Source: a candidate division WOR-3 bacterium
GTDB lineage: Bacteria > Hydrothermota > Tepidihabitantia > Tepidihabitantales > Tepidihabitantaceae
Length of the DNA: 24,272 nucleotides
Assembly: GCA_039801225.1 (NCBI GenBank)
Contig: JBDRUH010000018.1
Location: 1-24,272 of the forward strand
Reading direction: 5' to 3'
In this document: positions 1-7,672 of the stretch, in pieces
Position numbering within the stretch: the stretch's first letter is position 1
How the letters are laid out: each line of letters begins with the position of its first letter
Position numbers and translations under genes: made by a program
The notes under the pieces: generated by a model
The model's database searches: none
The model's input: only the letters and a program-made list of their open reading frames with translations
Told to the model about the DNA's origin: nothing

Positions 1-399
1 GTCTATCTACGCTGGGAGAGTGAGACATTAGAATACCTACCGGCACTTGACCACAAGTGTAATGCTGGACTTAATATGGTTAGCATTTCTCCGCACGGGG
101 AAGTTTACCCGTGTGTTGCCCTGAAGATTCCGGCAGGGAATTTAAAAAAAGAAAAATTTGAACAAATTTGGCAACTCGCTCCGATTTTGGTAAAATTAAG
201 GAGTATGAAATTTACTGATTTCAAAAAATGCCCGGAATGTCCCCTCTTGGATATATGTTCAAGGTGTCCGGGATTTTCCCTTCCCGAAGAAGGGGATTTC
301 TTAATACCTTCTAAGGAGGAATGCCGAATAGCAAGATTAAGAAAGGAGGTCAGAAATGAAAAGGGCACAATATCAAAAGCCAGAACTTACCAAGCATAA
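1..399 (+). CDS. Radical SAM/SPASM domain protein, C-terminal part (5' truncated by window)
   Basis: Frame 1 is open from base 1: ...HKCNAGLNMVSISPHGEVYPC...GNL...FEQIW...CPECPLLDICSRCPG...EC. This is the typical SPASM auxiliary Fe-S pattern. The radical SAM core itself lies outside the window. Confidence 0.9.
   Translation, partial: VYLRWESETLEYLPALDHKCNAGLNMVSISPHGEVYPCVALKIPAGNLKKEKFEQIWQLAPILVKLRSMKFTDFKKCPECPLLDICSRCPGFSLPEEGDFLIPSKEECRIARLRKEVRNEKGTISKARTYQA
343..350 (+). promoter_or_regulatory. Shine-Dalgarno site of precursor peptide
   Basis: AAGGAGGT 5 nt upstream of ATG 356, embedded in the SPASM coding sequence. Confidence 0.8.
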
Positions 400-514
400 G
401 TCTTTGCGGAAATTGACTATGGCTGCGTATAAGCAGGATTCTAATCCCGATTGTCAGTCAAGTTGTGCCTATTGTGCTGGTGGTGGCGGTAACCCAGCAA
501 TGAACTGTGTATAA
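356..514 (+). CDS. Putative RiPP precursor peptide, 52 aa: MKRAQYQKPELTKHKSLRKLTMAAYKQDSNPDCQSSCAYCAGGGGNPAMNCV
   Basis: Hand-translated; absent from the ORF track. Strong SD, leader YQKPELxxxKxxxxxT matching the lasso/RRE-binding YxxPxLxxxGxxxxxT spacing, Cys-rich C-terminus, and position directly after an rSAM/SPASM gene. Confidence 0.85.
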   Translation: MKRAQYQKPELTKHKSLRKLTMAAYKQDSNPDCQSSCAYCAGGGGNPAMNCV

Positions 515-534
515 TGAAATAGTCTGTTTATTTA

Positions 535-543
535 TAAGGAGGT
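535..543 (+). promoter_or_regulatory. Shine-Dalgarno site of kinase gene
   Basis: TAAGGAGGT at the start of the stop-free frame that runs from 518 into ORF 803-1549. Confidence 0.65.
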
Positions 544-550
544 CGGAGAA

Positions 551-1549
551 GTATTTATAATTAGGTTTAAACTCGGTGGCAACTTAATAGAATTTTCAAC
601 CAATAATTTTAAATTATTTGAATATTTAATTTCTTCTTTAGGATTAACAGAAACTGACACGACAAATAATAATTTTTCCATTAAAGAGAGGATAATAAAA
701 ATTAGATGGCGGGCAATCAAAGAAAAGTCTTTAATAAAACTCCCGCTCAGTACCGAACTTATCTATATCGGACCGCGATGGCGATTTTATCGCCATAATA
801 GGTTGTGGTTCTGTCAATACAAAAAAGGCATTTTCTTCAAAGTCAACTTAAACCAAGAGACGATAACCGGGGATGTTAAGGTTCGATATCTACCAGAACC
901 GGAGTTCTTTCTTGAAGTCCTTTTTCCTTTATTTGAAATTTTGCGCCGGCGGGGATTGTATGCGGTTCACTGTGGAGCGGTTGGGTTTAAAGAAAAGAAA
1001 CCGAAAACTGGTGACCGGAGACAGAGTATTAAAGGAATAATTTTCCCTGGCAAGGCAGGAGCAGGAAAGAGCAGTTTAGTCCTCCATCTGGTTGCCCAGG
1101 GGGCGAAGTTTTTAAGTGACGACCGTTGCTTGCTGAGTAAGGATATGTTAGGTTTTCAGGTTTTCGGGCTTAGGGAAAAGGTGCGGATTTGTCCGGAAAA
1201 TTTCGCAGGGATTACGAAGTTGGCGGTTTTTGCCTCAGGCAACCCCGGATTTAAAAAAAGTTTTAACATTACTGATGTCTATCCAGATAGTATAATTGAG
1301 AAGGCAAAAGTTAAACTGATTGTTTTCCCATCTTGGCAACCACAAGAGAAAAGCCGGTTAACACCGATATCAGCCAGTGAGGCGCTGAAAGAAATTCTGC
1401 CACTTTCCCTTGAGGCGTTCTTTCCGGATTCGGCTAAAGCCAATTTTGAATTCCTCTCTGACCTGGTTACAAGTCTTCCCTGTTATAGATTTTATCTCGG
1501 CAAGGACAGGGAAAACTGGTATAATATAATCAAGAGGCTGGTCTGTTAA
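551..1549 (+). CDS. HPr kinase-related P-loop kinase (lasso/RiPP tailoring kinase-like); start uncertain (about 551-560 non-canonical, or TTG 803)
   Basis: VHCGAV catalytic-His segment, Walker A GKAGAGKSS and FLSDD motif. Frame is open without stops from 518, with a strong SD at 535-543. Confidence 0.75.
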   Translation, partial: VFIIRFKLGGNLIEFSTNNFKLFEYLISSLGLTETDTTNNNFSIKERIIKIRWRAIKEKSLIKLPLSTELIYIGPRWRFYRHNRLWFCQYKKGIFFKVNLNQETITGDVKVRYLPEPEFFLEVLFPLFEILRRRGLYAVHCGAVGFKEKKPKTGDRRQSIKGIIFPGKAGAGKSSLVLHLVAQGAKFLSDDRCLLSKDMLGFQVFGLREKVRICPENFAGITKLAVFASGNPGFKKSFNITDVYPDSIIEKAKVKLIVFPSWQPQEKSRLTPISASEALKEILPLSLEAFFPDSAKANFEFLSDLVTSLPCYRFYLGKDRENWYNIIKRLVC

Positions 1550-1581: not shown

Positions 1582-2625
1582 TTGCAGGAGTTTCTTAAGG
1601 ATTTTGTCATTATGGAGAAGGTTCCCTTAGACAGCGAAAAGAGGCAGGCACTTAAACGGGTGATTGCGGCCAGAAACATCTTTTTGTTAAATGAACTGCG
1701 TCAGATACTTGATGCTTTTCATCGTTCTAAAATTGAAGTAATTATTCTAAAAGGGGCAGCCTTAACCGAAAGCCTCTATCCCCATATCGGCATCAGGGGA
1801 TTTGTTGACATTGACCTTTTGGTTCATCCTGAAGATATGTCGAGGGTAGCAGAAATTATCCGGAGTTTTAATTATCAGCCTGAAATCCCTGGGGCTGATT
1901 TGGGTCAACCGTGGACTGAGAAATTCGGCTGCATAGTTGATGTAACTTATATCAAGCAGAATGAACTGACCGTAATGGTGGATGTGCATTGGGGTTTAGG
2001 TCGTCCAGGAACCTATTTTGACCGGGTGGATATTAAAAGTTTGTGGCATAGGGCAAAGAAGGAAAAGGTTGCAGGTATTGATGCTTTGATCTTATGTCCG
2101 GAGGATTTGCTCATTTTCCTCTGTCTTCATATGTTCAAACATTGTCCTAATTTCAATTTCAACTCTCTCTGCGATATTGGCCAATTAATAAAGTTTAGTG
2201 GCAGTGATATTGACTGGCAGGACTTTGTGAATAGAGTTTTTCAGTTTAGAATATGTCTGCCGGTGAGATTCGCTATTCAGCAAACCTGCAGGGTATTTCA
2301 ATCTCCGGTGCCTGTTTGGGTGCTTAAAAAATTTGATAGTTATAATCCGGGCTTTTTAGAAAGAGTGTCTTTTCGAATAGGGAGAGCACCGGGACAAAGA
2401 TACAGTACTGGTAGATATACATTGTCGTGTATACTCATTGTTCAGGGTTTGGGCAGAAAAATCGGCTATCTTCGGCGGATATTTTTCCCCGACAGGAAAT
2501 TTATTCTCTGGCGTTATGGCAACAGGTTCAACTCTCTGCCCCAATACTATATTATGCATCTATTTAGAGTAATAATTGAATTCGGCGCGGCGATTTCCCT
2601 CAAAAGAAGTTCCCCTAATGAGTGA
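1582..2625 (+). CDS. Nucleotidyltransferase family protein (NTP_transf_5-like); alternative CTG start at 1543
   Basis: LKGAAL..YP..G.R...DIDLLV and VDVHW motifs characteristic of the uncharacterised nucleotidyltransferase family found in lasso/PqqD clusters. Confidence 0.85.
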   Translation: MQEFLKDFVIMEKVPLDSEKRQALKRVIAARNIFLLNELRQILDAFHRSKIEVIILKGAALTESLYPHIGIRGFVDIDLLVHPEDMSRVAEIIRSFNYQPEIPGADLGQPWTEKFGCIVDVTYIKQNELTVMVDVHWGLGRPGTYFDRVDIKSLWHRAKKEKVAGIDALILCPEDLLIFLCLHMFKHCPNFNFNSLCDIGQLIKFSGSDIDWQDFVNRVFQFRICLPVRFAIQQTCRVFQSPVPVWVLKKFDSYNPGFLERVSFRIGRAPGQRYSTGRYTLSCILIVQGLGRKIGYLRRIFFPDRKFILWRYGNRFNSLPQYYIMHLFRVIIEFGAAISLKRSSPNE

Positions 2626-3370
2626 ACCAATAACAATCGTTGATCTCACTAAACGTTTCCCCCAAAAAAGAGGAATGCGCGATTTGTTGCTTAAAAATAA
2701 AAATTACCTCTTTGCTCTTAATGGGGTGACTATCAAAGTAAAAAAAGGTGAGGTTTTTGGTTTGATGGGTCCGAACGGAGGGGGTAAAACAACGCTTCTG
2801 CGGATTTTGGCGACCCTGCTTCTGCCAGATGGTGGCAAAGCGTCTGTTAATGGTTATGATGTCATTACTCAGCCTGGAGAGGTGAAAATGAGCATCGGCT
2901 ACTGTTATGAGGGCGAAAGAAGTTTCTACTTCCGGTTGACCGGCAGGCAGAATTTGGAATTCTTTGCTGCACTTCAGAACTTAAGTGGACGCCGGCTCAG
3001 GGAGGAGGTTGCCCGTGTCCTTGACCTATTAGAACTATCCGCTTTTGCTGATCGCCTCTTTATGGAATACTCAACCGGGATGCGTCAGCGGCTCAATCTT
3101 GCCCGTGCCCTGTTAAATGACCCGCCAGTTTTACTTTTAGACGAGCCGACAAAAAGCCTTGACCCAATTGCCGCGCAGCACTTCCGGAAGTTTCTTAAGG
3201 AAAAAGTAGTTAAGGAAGGGAATAAGACCGTTTTGATCGCTACCCACAGTCTTGAAGAGGCGCAATATCTCTGCGACCGAATTGCCATTATTGAACAGGG
3301 GCGGGTTGTTGCCGAAGGCAATTATCAGAGAATAAGTGCTTACTTACAGAACAAAGGTGAGACTAAATAA
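2618..3370 (+). CDS. ABC transporter ATP-binding protein (ABC-2/DrrA-like exporter)
   Basis: Walker A GPNGGGKTT, signature YSTGMRQ, Walker B LLLDEPT, H-loop ATH. ATG 2618 overlaps the end of the upstream gene. Confidence 0.95.
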   Translation: MSEPITIVDLTKRFPQKRGMRDLLLKNKNYLFALNGVTIKVKKGEVFGLMGPNGGGKTTLLRILATLLLPDGGKASVNGYDVITQPGEVKMSIGYCYEGERSFYFRLTGRQNLEFFAALQNLSGRRLREEVARVLDLLELSAFADRLFMEYSTGMRQRLNLARALLNDPPVLLLDEPTKSLDPIAAQHFRKFLKEKVVKEGNKTVLIATHSLEEAQYLCDRIAIIEQGRVVAEGNYQRISAYLQNKGETK

Positions 3371-4166
3371 ACTTATTGCCTTTATAAAAAAGGATTTCGT
3401 AATTGCCCGGAACTACCGTTTTGCCTTTATTTTGGAAATCCTGGGGATTTTCTTTTCCACCGCTTCGCTTTATTTCCTCTCGCGGATTTTCGGGAGTAGC
3501 ATTTCACCTTATCTTGAACCATATGGTAACAACTACTTTGCCTTTGTCCTCATCGGTATTGCCCTTTCCTCCTATCTCAGTTTCTCGCTTTACAGTTATT
3601 CCTCCCAGTTACGGGAATCTCAAGTCCAAGGTACCTTGGAGGCGCTACTGGTTACGCCAACTTCGCTTAGCACAATTGTTCTTTTTTCATCCATTTATCC
3701 ATTCCTTTATACTTCGCTCTCGGTAATCATCTATCTAATCCTCGGCATTCTGGTATTTGGTTTCTCTCTGGACAATGCAAACTTCTTGGCTGCCTTTGTC
3801 ATTCTTATCCTATCAATTACCTCCTTTTCCGGACTCGGCATCCTTTCGGCTGCCTTTATTATGGTATTTAAAAGGGGGAGTCCAATCCAATGGCTTGTCG
3901 GCAGCCTTTCCTATCTCCTTTCTGGTACATTATATCCGGTTTCAGTCTTGCCCGCCTGGTTGCAAAAATTTTCCTACCTTTTGCCATTGACCTATTCCTT
4001 GCAGGGGATGAGAGGCGCTCTGTTACAGAACCTACCGCTGAGAAACCTTGCTCCTAATATTATTGCCCTTTTACTGTTCAGTGTCGCCTTATTACCTTTA
4101 GGTCTTGGTGCATTTTATTACGCAACCAGAAGGGCCAAGATAGATGGCAGTCTGACTCATTACTGA
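3357..4166 (+). CDS. ABC-2 type transporter permease
   Basis: About 6 hydrophobic segments, E..QGTLEALLVTP and LSGTLYPVSVLPAWLQ..SYLLPLTY motifs. GTG 3357 chosen as start (track gives 3336). Confidence 0.92.
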   Translation: MRLNKLIAFIKKDFVIARNYRFAFILEILGIFFSTASLYFLSRIFGSSISPYLEPYGNNYFAFVLIGIALSSYLSFSLYSYSSQLRESQVQGTLEALLVTPTSLSTIVLFSSIYPFLYTSLSVIIYLILGILVFGFSLDNANFLAAFVILILSITSFSGLGILSAAFIMVFKRGSPIQWLVGSLSYLLSGTLYPVSVLPAWLQKFSYLLPLTYSLQGMRGALLQNLPLRNLAPNIIALLLFSVALLPLGLGAFYYATRRAKIDGSLTHY

Positions 4167-4171
4167 AGTTT

Positions 4172-7100
4172 TCATTGCAGAAATACGCAGCGATAAGTCA
4201 TTGTTTTTTCAGCGGCTTGTAATTTAATAAAATAAACTCCTTGAGCAAGGTTTTCTGGCTGCCAAAATAGTTCGTAACTGCCTGCAGGCTGGGTCTGATT
4301 GATTAGGGTTATAACTTTTCTGCCGGTGATGTCAAAGGCAGTAACCGATACCTGACTGGCAAAAGGAAGTGAATAATGGATTTTTGCTTTTTTGTTAAAG
4401 GGGTTAGGCGAGACCGAGAGGGTAGGACTGCCGTTTCTAAGTTCTGTATTCATCTCTTCAATTATTCCGACATTAGTATTGAACCAATTCTGAGATGCAG
4501 AACAGGAGGCGATGTAGGAGATGGAGTCGGATGCGGCGATGAAGGCAAATGCCACCCTTTGTTTGCCATTGGGTAGGAGGTCAAAAGGACCTGTTGCTAC
4601 CGCGATTGACCAGTTGTAAGGACGGTCAGACCGTTGAGCACCAAGAGTTCCATTTAAGATGCGGAACTTCATCTCCTCGGTCAGCGCTGAATCTGGATAG
4701 ACATAGCGACTGTGGTCAATGCAGGTAAGGTTTACCGGGTTTTGGGGATAAAGTAGTTTGACACCAAGGTAACGGTCAGGGAACTGGATATTCGACATCA
4801 CCGCGGTGTTTAGCCCCGGCAGAGTAAAGGCGATATCGTGGAAACGGTCGTTTATTTTTACATCAAAGTCGGCAAGAATTCCAGCATAAAGCCCTAACAG
4901 CGGCTGAGTAGCAGTATTTTTGATGTCATAAATTAAAACCACGAAATTATCTGCCCCGGGTTTGTTCAAACCTAACGCCTTTTGTTCAACAAGCAGACCC
5001 TTGGGTTGAGGGTGACCTTCGTCGGTAAACCCCCCATAAATAAATTCATCCGAGTTCCAGAGTGGCAGCCGCACTCGGAGGCTTTCGTGAAGTCGCCAAT
5101 CTTGGTCAAAGCCATATTTACTCTGGTTGTAAAACCGGTCAACAAGATAATCTGCTGAGTTACCTACTGAGAAACTGGCGATGTTTAACCCGGTGGTGTC
5201 CGATTTGGGATAACGAAACCCCTTTCCCTGACGCGAGGAGGAGATGTCAAAACCGATTGTTCCACGGGCGGTTACGGTTAAGGCACAGATACCGGTGTCA
5301 ATCTCAACCCAGGTTCTGCCCGGATACCCCAGGTCAAGAGAAAACCAGAATCCAAATTCACCCTGGTCGGAGTGAACCAAGGCGAAAAGTTCTGGACTTG
5401 AGCCGGGCAAGGCAGAAGACCGGGCAGAGACGACGAGGCTGGTTGCTTGAACAGGATTATCAGGAAAAATGGTGTCAATAAAGGTGGTTGAGTCGAGAAT
5501 AGAGATATCCGGGTTAACTGTTGATAAGGTGAGATTGATGTTGGTTGCTGGAGAGAGACCTATGTTGAGAAAAGTCAGTTTTAGACCAGCGGTCTCGCCG
5601 GGCTCAAGGATGCGGTTTGGGTTGGATTGGGTGCTGTCATCAATTTCGTAGTTTTGGTAGATGATAACCGGTTCTGGGATGCCCTGTTTGATAATAATGG
5701 TTTTCTCTCCAGACAGGCTGTTATGCCGGGTGGCGGTAATTTTTAGTTCACCCGGGGTTAGTGGATGAATGGTTAGATTCGCTTCTCCATTAATATTAGT
5801 GTTAGCCCGGGCAAAAACATCGTTATTTTTATAAGCGGTTACCACAGCTCCAGGAGCGGGACTGCCATTTTCGTAGACGGTAACCTTCAATGTCTGGGGG
5901 CCGGTAAGAATGGTGTCAGGAGCGTTAAGAGTGAGGTCAAAAGGAGGCTCAGTCCAGATGTCAATCGTTGGGTCGCCGAGAAGGTTAAATTCGGTGAAGC
6001 ACCAGCGCCAGATTTTATCCCATTGAGCATAGATAACATATTGCTCGCGCGACCGGTTGTGGCAGGAACCGATAACCGATTGCTGGCAGTTGAATAAAAA
6101 GTCATAAAAACGAATGCAGAGTAGTTCTGAAGGACCAATATAAGGGGGTGTCCCCCAGCCATAGCGGGAGTTCATCATTACACCAATTGCACCACCATTT
6201 GGGCAGTTCAATGCTGCTTCAGCTAGGCAGTCCTCAGCCTCAAAGTTGCCGGGGTTGCAGGCGAGCGAGGTGATAATAGTAAATCTTTGGTCGTTGTGCT
6301 GATTACCGGCAAGACCGGAGGTATAAATTGGTGTGCCATCTTCGTCATATACCCCGTATTCATTGCCATGTCCTGCCGGGTCAAAAATGGCAAAACCGTT
6401 ATCAAAAGAGTCGGCAACTAATTGGGAGTTGGGCGAGTTCTCCATCTTTCGGTCAATCCAGTCTGAAGGGGTAATGTTGGCGATGGAATCATTGACAAAC
6501 TTGCCATGATAACCGATTGACCGCCAGAGCCAGCCCGAGGGTAAGAGGGCGCGTTTGATGTAGTCGGTTGCCGGGTTGTTCTCATAGGTTTTGACCTTGT
6601 TAATAAAGTTATAAACCTGAATTGAGTCCTCAACTGAGACACGACCGACAATAACATCGGCATAGAAGTCAACCGAATCCGCCATTTCCCCAAAGAGGTT
6701 ATTATTGTTTGAGTCCCAGGAGTAGTCCAAATCGCCAAAATAGAGGTCGGTAGGAATATCCCAAGGTTCGGGAATTTCTAACCGGATGCGCCTTGAGGGA
6801 ACCTGTTGAACATCGCCGGCGAGGAGTACATAGCAGAGCCCGCGATTCTGGAAGTAGTTGATAATTAGGTTACGAATCTTTTCCTGAATGTCCCGTCCAG
6901 AAAAGTTGTGCTCAACCCACTCAACGGTTCTTATTTCGGACTTAAGCCCCCTAGAATTTTTATATTCAATATAGGAGGTAAAAAGCGGAGCAAGTTTCTG
7001 AGTGGTTATTATCAGATAGTTAATCTGAGGCTGAGTGAGTTTTTTAACCGGTGGGGCAAAGGTTGAAAGATTTTCCGGGTTGGTTATTAGTGGGCCGAGG

Positions 7101-7672
7101 CTTTTAAGAGTGATTTCCTTTTGGAGAGGTGTGAGGGTGATTGGCAATATGGCGCTCTTTTGATAATAAATAGCAATTTCTACCTGGGTGTGCAAGAAAA
7201 GTTCACCAGAACGGGGATGGTATTCAAAAGGGCAAAGGGTAATTGAGACAAGCCGGAAACCGGTGGCGTTGCCGGTGGAGTAACGGATAAGCGGTTGGTT
7301 CGGAAATGGTTCATCTGAGGAGTAGGTTGCAGAGTCGGGTGGAACGAAAGTGCTAATTTCTCTTTGGGAAAGGGGCGTTGGTAACTGAGCGGGAAAAATG
7401 TTAAATTTGCCGGGGATGTTTTCAGTGATTAGTGGTTTGACGAGCACATCACTGAGATGGGCATCGGCAGGGATGACAAAGGTTAGAGTGACAAGGGGGA
7501 GAGCAGGTTTGCCCGGGTCAGACAGGGTAAAACTCTTGGGAAGTTCTACCACATCATAGCCCTGATAATTACGGAAGTTTAACGTCTTATCAGAAAAATT
7601 CACCGTTTTCCTCAGAACACTGGAGAAAAGGTGAAGAGAAGCCAGTAAAAGTAAAAGAATAATCCTTTTCAA
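4172..7672 (-). CDS. Secreted C25-family (gingipain-like) cysteine peptidase with propeptide and T9SS-type C-terminal domain
   Basis: Signal peptide, propeptide (PGKPALP), YVLLAGD, DLYFGDLD, VIVGRVS, catalytic GHG and ACNPG, FNLLGDP, and C-terminal SPNPFN...DITGRKV...GVYFIKL. TTG start with GGAGG RBS. Confidence 0.9.
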   Translation of the reverse strand: MKRIILLLLLASLHLFSSVLRKTVNFSDKTLNFRNYQGYDVVELPKSFTLSDPGKPALPLVTLTFVIPADAHLSDVLVKPLITENIPGKFNIFPAQLPTPLSQREISTFVPPDSATYSSDEPFPNQPLIRYSTGNATGFRLVSITLCPFEYHPRSGELFLHTQVEIAIYYQKSAILPITLTPLQKEITLKSLGPLITNPENLSTFAPPVKKLTQPQINYLIITTQKLAPLFTSYIEYKNSRGLKSEIRTVEWVEHNFSGRDIQEKIRNLIINYFQNRGLCYVLLAGDVQQVPSRRIRLEIPEPWDIPTDLYFGDLDYSWDSNNNNLFGEMADSVDFYADVIVGRVSVEDSIQVYNFINKVKTYENNPATDYIKRALLPSGWLWRSIGYHGKFVNDSIANITPSDWIDRKMENSPNSQLVADSFDNGFAIFDPAGHGNEYGVYDEDGTPIYTSGLAGNQHNDQRFTIITSLACNPGNFEAEDCLAEAALNCPNGGAIGVMMNSRYGWGTPPYIGPSELLCIRFYDFLFNCQQSVIGSCHNRSREQYVIYAQWDKIWRWCFTEFNLLGDPTIDIWTEPPFDLTLNAPDTILTGPQTLKVTVYENGSPAPGAVVTAYKNNDVFARANTNINGEANLTIHPLTPGELKITATRHNSLSGEKTIIIKQGIPEPVIIYQNYEIDDSTQSNPNRILEPGETAGLKLTFLNIGLSPATNINLTLSTVNPDISILDSTTFIDTIFPDNPVQATSLVVSARSSALPGSSPELFALVHSDQGEFGFWFSLDLGYPGRTWVEIDTGICALTVTARGTIGFDISSSRQGKGFRYPKSDTTGLNIASFSVGNSADYLVDRFYNQSKYGFDQDWRLHESLRVRLPLWNSDEFIYGGFTDEGHPQPKGLLVEQKALGLNKPGADNFVVLIYDIKNTATQPLLGLYAGILADFDVKINDRFHDIAFTLPGLNTAVMSNIQFPDRYLGVKLLYPQNPVNLTCIDHSRYVYPDSALTEEMKFRILNGTLGAQRSDRPYNWSIAVATGPFDLLPNGKQRVAFAFIAASDSISYIASCSASQNWFNTNVGIIEEMNTELRNGSPTLSVSPNPFNKKAKIHYSLPFASQVSVTAFDITGRKVITLINQTQPAGSYELFWQPENLAQGVYFIKLQAAEKTMTYRCVFLQ

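Follow-up and report, generated by a model that had tools for sequence, protein, structure and literature searches.

The closest described system to the peptide locus considered here is that of the linear polyphosphorylated peptides (LPP), encoded by lppA-K-B-S-D-N of Paenibacillus alginolyticus (Popov et al., Nat Commun 2026; PMC13381572), followed by the lasso peptide clusters of paeninodin and pseudomycoidin. According to the main text of that study, the lasso and LPP leaders bear the motif [Y/W]xxPx[L/V/I] for the recognition element (RRE) of RiPPs, peptides made on ribosomes and modified after translation, the LPP leader follows the consensus YxxPxVLxHQxIxFETxxS, and the kinase LppK phosphorylates an internal residue, Ser3 (PMC13381572). 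The locus lies at the start of contig C18 in the genome of a candidate division WOR-3 bacterium (G000; 1.50 Mb, 72 contigs, 88.8% complete), and the whole stretch of 24,272 nucleotides, taken from the first base of the contig, is referred to as the window. It comprises a 52-aa open reading frame (ORF) at 356..514 (+ strand), which overlaps the end of a radical S-adenosylmethionine (rSAM)/SPASM maturase gene, truncated by the contig start, and is followed by genes for an HprK-like kinase, a nucleotidyltransferase and a two-gene exporter. This ORF probably encodes the A peptide, or precursor, of a lasso-like RiPP cluster that has no cyclase, and would be an RRE-recruited substrate of the rSAM enzyme. 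The orthologous cluster was found complete on L133, a 9.85-kb metagenome contig almost identical to that of G199, a genome of the same family as G000.

The enzyme set of LPP was recovered in this cluster together with its L133 counterpart, namely a stand-alone RRE, an HprK-like kinase (with scores below the curated cut-offs), a nucleoside triphosphate (NTP) transferase, uncharacterised in LPP, an exporter, and no macrolactam cyclase. Likewise, the leader of the window peptide fits [Y/W]xxPx[L/V/I] and part of the LPP consensus, with the Tyr, Pro, His and Thr residues equally spaced, and sister clusters of the wider family even hold a SipW-like peptidase. In contrast to LPP, the window cluster includes an rSAM/SPASM enzyme and has cores that bear Cys, is found outside Bacillota and has an ABC-2 exporter instead of one of the MsbA type. 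Moreover, a lasso-type B2 peptidase is found in the window branch where LPP has a signal peptidase I of archaeal type (LppS); L133 has no signal peptidase I, and this enzyme was found in the sister clusters L030, L137, L140, L144 and L145. Counting from the motif Tyr (Y0), the LPP Ser at Y+18, which is core position 3, is replaced by Ala24 in the window and by Glu in G199.

The paeninodin and pseudomycoidin clusters share with the window branch the split B1/B2 pair, a leader with Thr at its penultimate position, Thr(-2), an HprK-like kinase, a PF14907 nucleotidyltransferase and an ABC exporter, as described in PMC9266682. Unlike them, the window cluster lacks a cyclase C, and its peptide has neither an Asp or Glu at core positions 7-9 nor a Ser at the C-terminus; its branch carries an rSAM/SPASM gene between B2 and the precursor. 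Sactipeptide and ranthipeptide systems (SkfB, CteB, PapB) likewise pair an rSAM/SPASM enzyme with a PqqD-type RRE to act on a short peptide that contains Cys; however, the RRE is discrete here and fused there, the enzyme scores far below the StsB, AlbA and PapB cut-offs, a thioether is putative here, and the kinase, nucleotidyltransferase and B2 are foreign to those pathways. GeoRSP and SynChlorMet (NCBIfam TIGR04302-04304, TIGR04355 and TIGR04248-04251) are computationally defined cassettes in which an HprK-related kinase occurs with a PqqD family protein and with rSAM/SPASM proteins. The same kinds of protein co-occur here, and the models match the kinase, PqqD and rSAM proteins weakly, every score being far below the curated cut-off. 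Literature searches on the GeoRSP, SynChlorMet and HprK-related names returned no relevant paper, and a B1/B2 cluster with an rSAM gene but without a cyclase was not found described in the literature searched, supplements being outside the search; in the texts of PMC7470986 and PMC12710340 there were 0 matches for kinase or HPr.

It is about evenly plausible that the locus belongs to a new class of RiPPs, whose lasso B1/B2 module for recognising and cleaving the leader was uncoupled from the cyclase and wired to rSAM/SPASM crosslinking and to phosphorylation and nucleotidyl (or glycosyl) transfer. A hot-spring bacterium would then make a peptide crosslinked through Cys and decorated with phosphate, with two diverging precursors that have one leader feeding one enzyme set. 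If true, B2 peptidases and the Thr(-2) rule would not be exclusive to lasso peptides, genome mining by B1/B2 and leader motif would mislabel such loci as lasso, and the lasso, LPP and rSAM/SPASM toolkits would be joined in one evolutionary continuum, in which the peptidase is swapped (B2, SipW-like, perhaps C25) while the leader motif stays. The cluster is compact, with 7-8 genes, and the peptide family around it is large, with at least 223 clusters, its listed members having no informative name.

The precursor gene and its second copy

The precursor ORF (356..514, + strand) reads MKRAQYQKPELTKHKSLRKLTMAAYKQDSNPDCQSSCAYCAGGGGNPAMNCV and ends with TAA followed by TGA. Its Shine-Dalgarno sequence, AAGGAGGT (343..350, + strand), is placed 5 nt before the ATG at 356, inside the 3′ end of the rSAM gene, and the ORF shares 44 nt (356-399), in another frame, with the 5′-truncated SPASM ORF at 1-399. 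The predicted leader (residues 1-22; 356..421, + strand) presents a basic N-terminus, an RRE-binding-type motif Y6-x-x-P9-x-L11, His14, Leu17, and Thr21 at Y+15. The putative core (residues 23-52, AAYKQDSNPDCQSSCAYCAGGGGNPAMNCV; 422..514 with the stop, + strand) contains Cys33, Cys37, Cys40 and Cys51, and has Asp28 and Asp32 at core positions 6 and 10 counted from Ala23 and a C-terminal Val. A sequence-only reading of the window had already described the Shine-Dalgarno sequence, the ATG, the 44-nt overlap, the leader spacing (Y6, P9, L11, K15, T21), the Asp positions and the Val end, all of which were correct when re-read. That reading had also taken the ORF for a RiPP precursor whose leader is lasso-type and whose core is not, which agrees with the presence in L133 of a PqqD-type RRE and a B2 gene upstream of the rSAM/SPASM gene and the absence there of a cyclase; its picture nevertheless has to be enlarged by a second precursor copy, a wider peptide family and LPP as the closest known system.

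The second copy was found in the same genome (G000:C10:728-889; L002 728-889), where it encodes 53 aa between unrelated genes, with its own Shine-Dalgarno sequence (AAGGAGT, similar to that of the window) and no maturase genes nearby. The similarity between the copies starts at window position 337 and is confined to the Shine-Dalgarno sequence and the ORF (337-526, 82% nt identity), and the precursor frame is the sole frame open in both. Nineteen codons differ between them, 12 by synonymous and 7 by non-synonymous changes. In the leader (residues 1-22) only four synonymous changes and one R>K substitution were observed, residues 4-31 being identical, while all four Cys are kept and the core changes fall at six positions (D32N, Q34A, G43T, A48T, N50S and V52T). 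Public hot-spring DNA runs carry both copies as well as variants (codon 32 = ACT; V52L), although errors are possible in single low-depth contigs. In a three-way alignment with the G199 peptide, Q27, P31, C33 and S35 were invariant.

The purifying pattern in the paralog, together with the peptides of relatives encoded at the same place with their own Shine-Dalgarno sequences, indicates that ORF 356-514 is a real gene under selection at the protein level, and the C10 copy would be an alternative substrate supplied in trans with the same leader. The peptide matched no model of Pfam or NCBIfam, lasso-leader models included, and a single-peptide search of 5.8 billion proteins returned its own entry alone, a singleton without a name; promoters and terminators, when scanned for around the two copies, were not more numerous than in shuffled sequences.

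Contigs of public hot-spring runs end within the precursor ORF, and since they break there, the assembly was probably cut at this site by the two near-identical precursor copies, with the loss of B1, B2 and the N-terminal half of the rSAM gene. One 1510-nt contig of run X1 reaches 1066 nt upstream of the window start.

Relatives, upstream genes and a proposed pathway

The sequence-only reading had proposed that short ORFs be collected next to homologous SPASM genes, and such ORFs were sought and found. A tblastn-like search with the peptide in 272 genomes of the phylum gave matches in 62 genomes at E<=1, of which only those in G000 (two copies) and G199 (E 3.7e-4) were credible; a match in L023 lay inside a large reverse-strand ORF and was discarded. 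When metagenome contigs were scanned for the leader pattern, 218 stretches matched, of which six, some of them on L133, were confirmed. In G199, a 43-aa ORF with the leader QYEKPELTKHEPLRSVT overlaps the end of a 342-aa rSAM/SPASM gene, and the same kind of overlap, between a peptide ORF with this leader and the 3′ end of a homologous rSAM gene, is seen in G199/L133, L136 and L131/L132, the last pair having a third precursor type that reads ...YVKPELTKHKSLRKITMAPAVEGQCSTCYNGDTPF. The pattern QY[QE]KPELTKH..LR..T is repeated in G199/L133 and L136, with the variant YVKPELTKH in L131/L132. These peptides form a branch of five variants with the window-type leader, whose maturases are called B2-type rSAM enzymes, and the lasso leader pattern YxxPxL...T(-2) is present in 5/5 of its members. 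A related leader occurs in L134, where a Cys-free 36-aa peptide (3972-4082) has the same spacing (YQKPEIIEHENLSDVT) and a short core, GSIRQSNPEIN, with Gly1 and Glu9; the 5.9-kb contig carries no SPASM-type rSAM gene and has on the opposite strand a 403-aa ORF that may, by appearance, encode a nucleotidyltransferase-like protein.

The gene order in L133 is a protein with a type IX secretion system (T9SS) tail, PqqD, lasso B2, rSAM/SPASM, the overlapping precursor, kinase, PF14907, ABC and ABC-2, and from the SPASM domain onward this is also the order of the window. The PqqD protein of L133 matched PF05402 with 78 bits and lasso_PqqD_Bac with 63.6 bits against a cut-off of 80, and the B2 peptidase of G199/L133 matched NF033537 with 53-54 bits against a cut-off of 33, in addition to PF13471. 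Moreover, in L132, L135 and L136 the rSAM gene is immediately preceded by B2 fragments that have the Cys and His motifs. In the window itself, the RRE is out of view because the contig starts inside the rSAM gene. No PqqD-type RRE was found in the window or in the G000 assembly, the only PF13471 match in G000 was an unrelated 469-aa lipoprotein, and the N-terminal half of the rSAM gene was found on no other contig of G000; since this assembly is 88.8% complete, these parts may yet be in the genome. RRE recruitment, as earlier proposed, is thus suggested by the gene content of the relatives and not by that of the window or its genome. The window query found no kinase in G199, whose contig stops after the precursor.

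No lasso cyclase lies upstream in L133, as the sequence-only reading had implied for a non-lasso core. The macrolactam cyclase (Asn-synthetase-like, PF00733) was found neither in G000 (same completeness) nor, by a Pfam scan, among the 10 large ORFs of the L133 contig, all of which were assigned otherwise or had no family match; in G199, PF00733 gave a 27.9-bit match only, to a 332-aa ORF on another contig.

The DNA itself shows the gene, the selection on it, the enzyme set and how the gene is coupled to that of the rSAM enzyme, and from these the following chemistry may be proposed. The precursor ORF has its own Shine-Dalgarno sequence for translation and is coupled to the rSAM gene through the 44-nt overlap, and its leader motif Y6xxP9xL11 would dock on the discrete PqqD-type RRE, by homology to lasso and LPP systems. 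When the L133 PqqD protein and its precursor were co-folded, the score was 0.58 against 0.03 for the best control (own alignments), with at least 87% of contacts shared between runs and a partner predicted local distance difference test (pLDDT) value of at least 53. The mark applied was reached by 116/157 solved complexes and 2/215 mismatches, and at scores <=0.60 by 18/157 and both mismatches. The model lends weak support to binding between RRE and leader, and may reflect memory, because like complexes have already been solved.

The core would then be modified by the rSAM/SPASM enzyme, most likely by a thioether-type crosslink from Cys33, the weakest step of the scheme, which is the simplest guess given that no core feature but the first Cys is common to the whole family; the other Cys may form further links or disulfides. 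In the window, this enzyme is represented by its C-terminal 132 aa (1..399, + strand), cut by the contig start, with a SPASM domain (PF13186, E 4.5e-11) and 54% identity to residues 218-338 of the G199 rSAM protein. The fragment contains 7 Cys in a SPASM-like pattern, and no NCBIfam family reached its cut-off on it (PapB, 17.7 bits against 340). The nearest solved relatives of the rSAM protein are SkfB (E 1e-15) and PqqE, over the rSAM domain only.

Subsequently, the HprK-like peptide kinase (518..1549, + strand) would phosphorylate a hydroxyl residue. Ser35 is the candidate, because a Ser or Thr two residues past the first Cys is the sole hydroxyl common to the five branch members. The kinase matched TIGR04352 with 49 bits and TIGR04355 with 38 bits, both below cut-off, and PF07475 with 22 bits; it has the P-loop GKAGAGKS and no relative among solved structures. 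The phosphate may then be extended by the NTP_transf_5 nucleotidyltransferase of PsmN/LppN type (1582..2625, + strand; PF14907, E 6e-45, 154 bits), for which the kinase and nucleotidyltransferase pair PsmK/PsmN of pseudomycoidin provides a precedent, as described in PMC9266682; for the phosphorylation itself, LppK with its internal Ser3 target (PMC13381572) is a further one.

Finally, the lasso-type B2 cysteine peptidase, presented by the RRE, would cut after Thr21-Met22, since Thr at Y+15 co-occurs with B2. The product of about 30 residues would be secreted by the ABC-2 exporter, encoded by an ABC transporter ATPase gene (2576..3370, + strand; PF00005; TIGR01188 231 bits, below cut-off) and an ABC-2 type permease gene (3336..4166, + strand; PF01061, E 1e-18), the last gene of the cluster. 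The Thr(-2) rule is an established property of B2 peptidases, and the core start given above was predicted from it.

The wider YxKPxL peptide family

A search of the phylum with the G199 rSAM protein found relatives in 15/272 genomes at E<=1e-40, and in a genome_contigs search 572/601 matched stretches were relatives, from which 80 loci were kept. These relatives (30-41% identity) come from Acidobacteriota, Omnitrophota, Gemmatimonadota, Nitrospirota, Myxococcota, Bacteroidota and the phylum of the window itself. A short ORF with a basic N-terminus, the motif [YW]x[KE]Px[LIV] and Cys was present beside the rSAM gene in 13 of the 16 genome_contigs loci examined (of the 80), and, when 22 loci of the phylum were examined, the same peptide type was found beside it at 12 distinct places; these precursors were chosen by eye (basic N-terminus, Cys, adjacency to rSAM) from the matches of a permissive motif pattern, the other matches being ignored. 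The neighbouring genes encode PqqD, an HprK-like kinase of about 300 aa (with weak TIGR04355 and ScmC matches) and, in many cases, PF14907. L030, L035, L137, L140, L144 and L145 have a SipW-like signal peptidase, which is either free or fused to the nucleotidyltransferase, and some clusters have a large C25 peptidase as well or instead; PF13471 was absent from the 115 neighbour proteins scanned in clusters of the main family.

A profile built from 19 precursors matched 223 proteins at E<=0.01 among 731 candidates, and the following figures refer to the 120 of these that were listed. All were nameless or called 'hypothetical protein', none had a Pfam domain, and the leader motif was present in 120/120. 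Ser was the last residue in 113/120, of which 95 ended in Gly-Ser, and three Cys were present in 114/120, the first lying exactly at Y+20 in 114/114 and being followed by Lys in 111/114. At Y+15, Ala was found in 92, Val in 27 and Thr in 1. The window branch, on the other hand, has Thr at Y+15 in 5/5 and 2 or 4 Cys placed otherwise, and lacks the C-terminal Ser; the window peptide has Lys26 at Y+20, four Cys and a Val end. It is therefore a side branch, and not a member, of the three-Cys, Gly-Ser-ended family, with which it has the leader motif and the enzyme set in common. Within the large YxKPxL peptide family, the window branch is rare.

A maximum-likelihood tree built from 33 rSAM sequences grouped the four B2-type enzymes in a clade (100/99) on an unresolved backbone. 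This clade was placed inside the group associated with PqqD and kinase and apart from six of the seven rows added as outgroup, the remaining one, L064, having fallen inside the group. Leader and peptidase covary: Thr at Y+15 goes with the B2 branch, and the annotated main-family clusters carry a SipW-like peptidase or a C25 peptidase.

Proteins of about 540-550 aa with a C-terminal NTP_transf_5 domain were observed in L035 (4836-6464), L145 (3214-4842) and L027 (4237-5895); their N-terminal part is signal-peptidase-like in L035, by an S24 match, and in L145, by a match to signal peptidase I, and an N-terminal extension is also present in L027. The best rSAM relative outside the phylum (41% identity) was found in an uncultured Cytophagia (L026 7658-10097), with C25, kinase, PqqD and rSAM genes; no small leader peptide is present there, and the rSAM gene is followed by a Laminin_G_3/T9SS-tailed gene split over three frames.

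Alternative explanations and remaining genes

Several observations weigh against the interpretation of the ORF as the substrate of an rSAM-dependent crosslinking cluster. The L133 rSAM protein belongs to no curated maturase family (AhbD being the best, with 177 bits against a cut-off of 500), and the models of thioether families scored far below their cut-offs on it (StsB 134.6 against 625, AlbA 87.6 against 850). The relatives carry 2 Cys only, the first alone being common to all; the four Cys donors of the sequence-only reading, like its sacti-/ranthipeptide chemistry, its choice of acceptors and its Ser/Tyr kinase targets, are tentative proposals, and the related leader of L134 precedes a core without any Cys. 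C-terminal Ser is the target in paeninodin-type systems; the window branch has neither this Ser, present in 113/120 listed main-family peptides, nor the LPP Ser at Y+18, and the kinase target named above is a guess. The RRE, B2 and the N-terminal half of the rSAM protein are placed in this organism by inference from its relatives, the co-fold adds weak support, and the cluster is known here from DNA alone.

The kinase gene, moreover, has no canonical start codon before 803, which also counts against this interpretation. Its frame is open from 518, a second Shine-Dalgarno sequence AAGGAGGT lies at 536-543, and the first ATG, GTG or TTG occurs at 803, after 95 open codons. From about 551 on, the encoded residues can be aligned to the N-terminal domain of the kinase homologues in L133, L131 and L136, the codons after the Shine-Dalgarno sequence include GTA (551), ATA (557) and ATT (560), and an independent contig of run X1 has identical letters across 457-885. 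This suggests a non-canonical start codon, a mutated GTG or an error.

The strongest alternative, although unlikely, is a linear phosphorylated LPP-like peptide, in which the kinase and the nucleotidyltransferase make the defining modification, the rSAM enzyme performs an epimerisation, a C-C or C-O link at Tyr/Trp, or a methylation, and the Cys form disulfides or bind metal after export. The combination of RRE, HprK-like kinase, NTP transferase, exporter and YxxP leader is indeed the LPP toolkit as given in the main text of PMC13381572, and the window leader coincides with the LPP consensus at Y0, P3, H8 and T15, with Leu replacing Val5 and Ile11. Aromatic residues in every core, and an rSAM enzyme that scores best with non-thioether enzymes (AhbD/NirJ, mycofactocin), point in the same direction. 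However, of the core residue classes the first Cys alone is kept family-wide, at the fixed Y+20 position in all 114 listed three-Cys members, the phospho-site Ser of LPP at Y+18 is Ala in the window, and LPP clusters have no rSAM enzyme, the term occurring 0 times in the main text of PMC13381572. A crosslinked, RRE-recruited rSAM substrate is retained as the probable nature of the precursor.

Far less probable is a modified lasso peptide, in which a cyclase encoded elsewhere would join Met22 or Ala24 to Asp28 or Asp32, with the rSAM enzyme and the kinase as tailoring enzymes. The lasso-type leader with its penultimate Thr and the B1 and B2 genes of the relatives are compatible with it, and a Met22-Asp28 bond would close a 7-membered ring. 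Against this, no Asn-synthetase-like gene was found in the L133 contig or in G000, and G199 offers only the 27.9-bit match. Furthermore, instead of an Asp or Glu at core positions 7-9, the window has Asp28 at 6 and Asp32 at 10, and the relatives have Glu at 6 and 5; counted from the residue after Thr, the acid falls at 7 in the window, 7 in G199 and 6 in L131. The rings from alternative starts that the sequence-only reading had considered likewise fail, as D32 is Asn in the paralog and Thr in a strain variant and the position of the acid after Thr varies. Since no cyclase was found in the L133 cluster, G000 or G199 and the acidic residue stands at varying positions after Thr(-2), the precursor is judged not to be a lasso peptide. 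The least probable explanation, that of a chance ORF or dead remnant in the overlap of two genes, could invoke the lack of expression support, of Pfam or NCBIfam matches and of any hit but itself for the single query among the 5.8 billion proteins, and it is contradicted by conservation, given a paralog under purifying selection, a peptide kept elsewhere at the same place with its own Shine-Dalgarno sequence, and a family profile that finds 223 proteins.

Beyond the precursor cluster, a peptidase C25 gene of gingipain type with a T9SS C-terminal domain (4172..7672, - strand; PF01364, 185 bits) is convergent with the ABC-2 gene and ends 6 nt past it. It was considered as a cluster member and not adopted: nine C25 genes are present in G000, none occurs at this place in L133, and the identity to the C25 protein of L026 is 21%. 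C25 genes adjoin the PqqD-rSAM pair in L026, L028, L034, L036, L038, L041 and L149. The remaining genes of the window are housekeeping genes, encoding Rnf, MnmG and a patatin-Omp85 protein.

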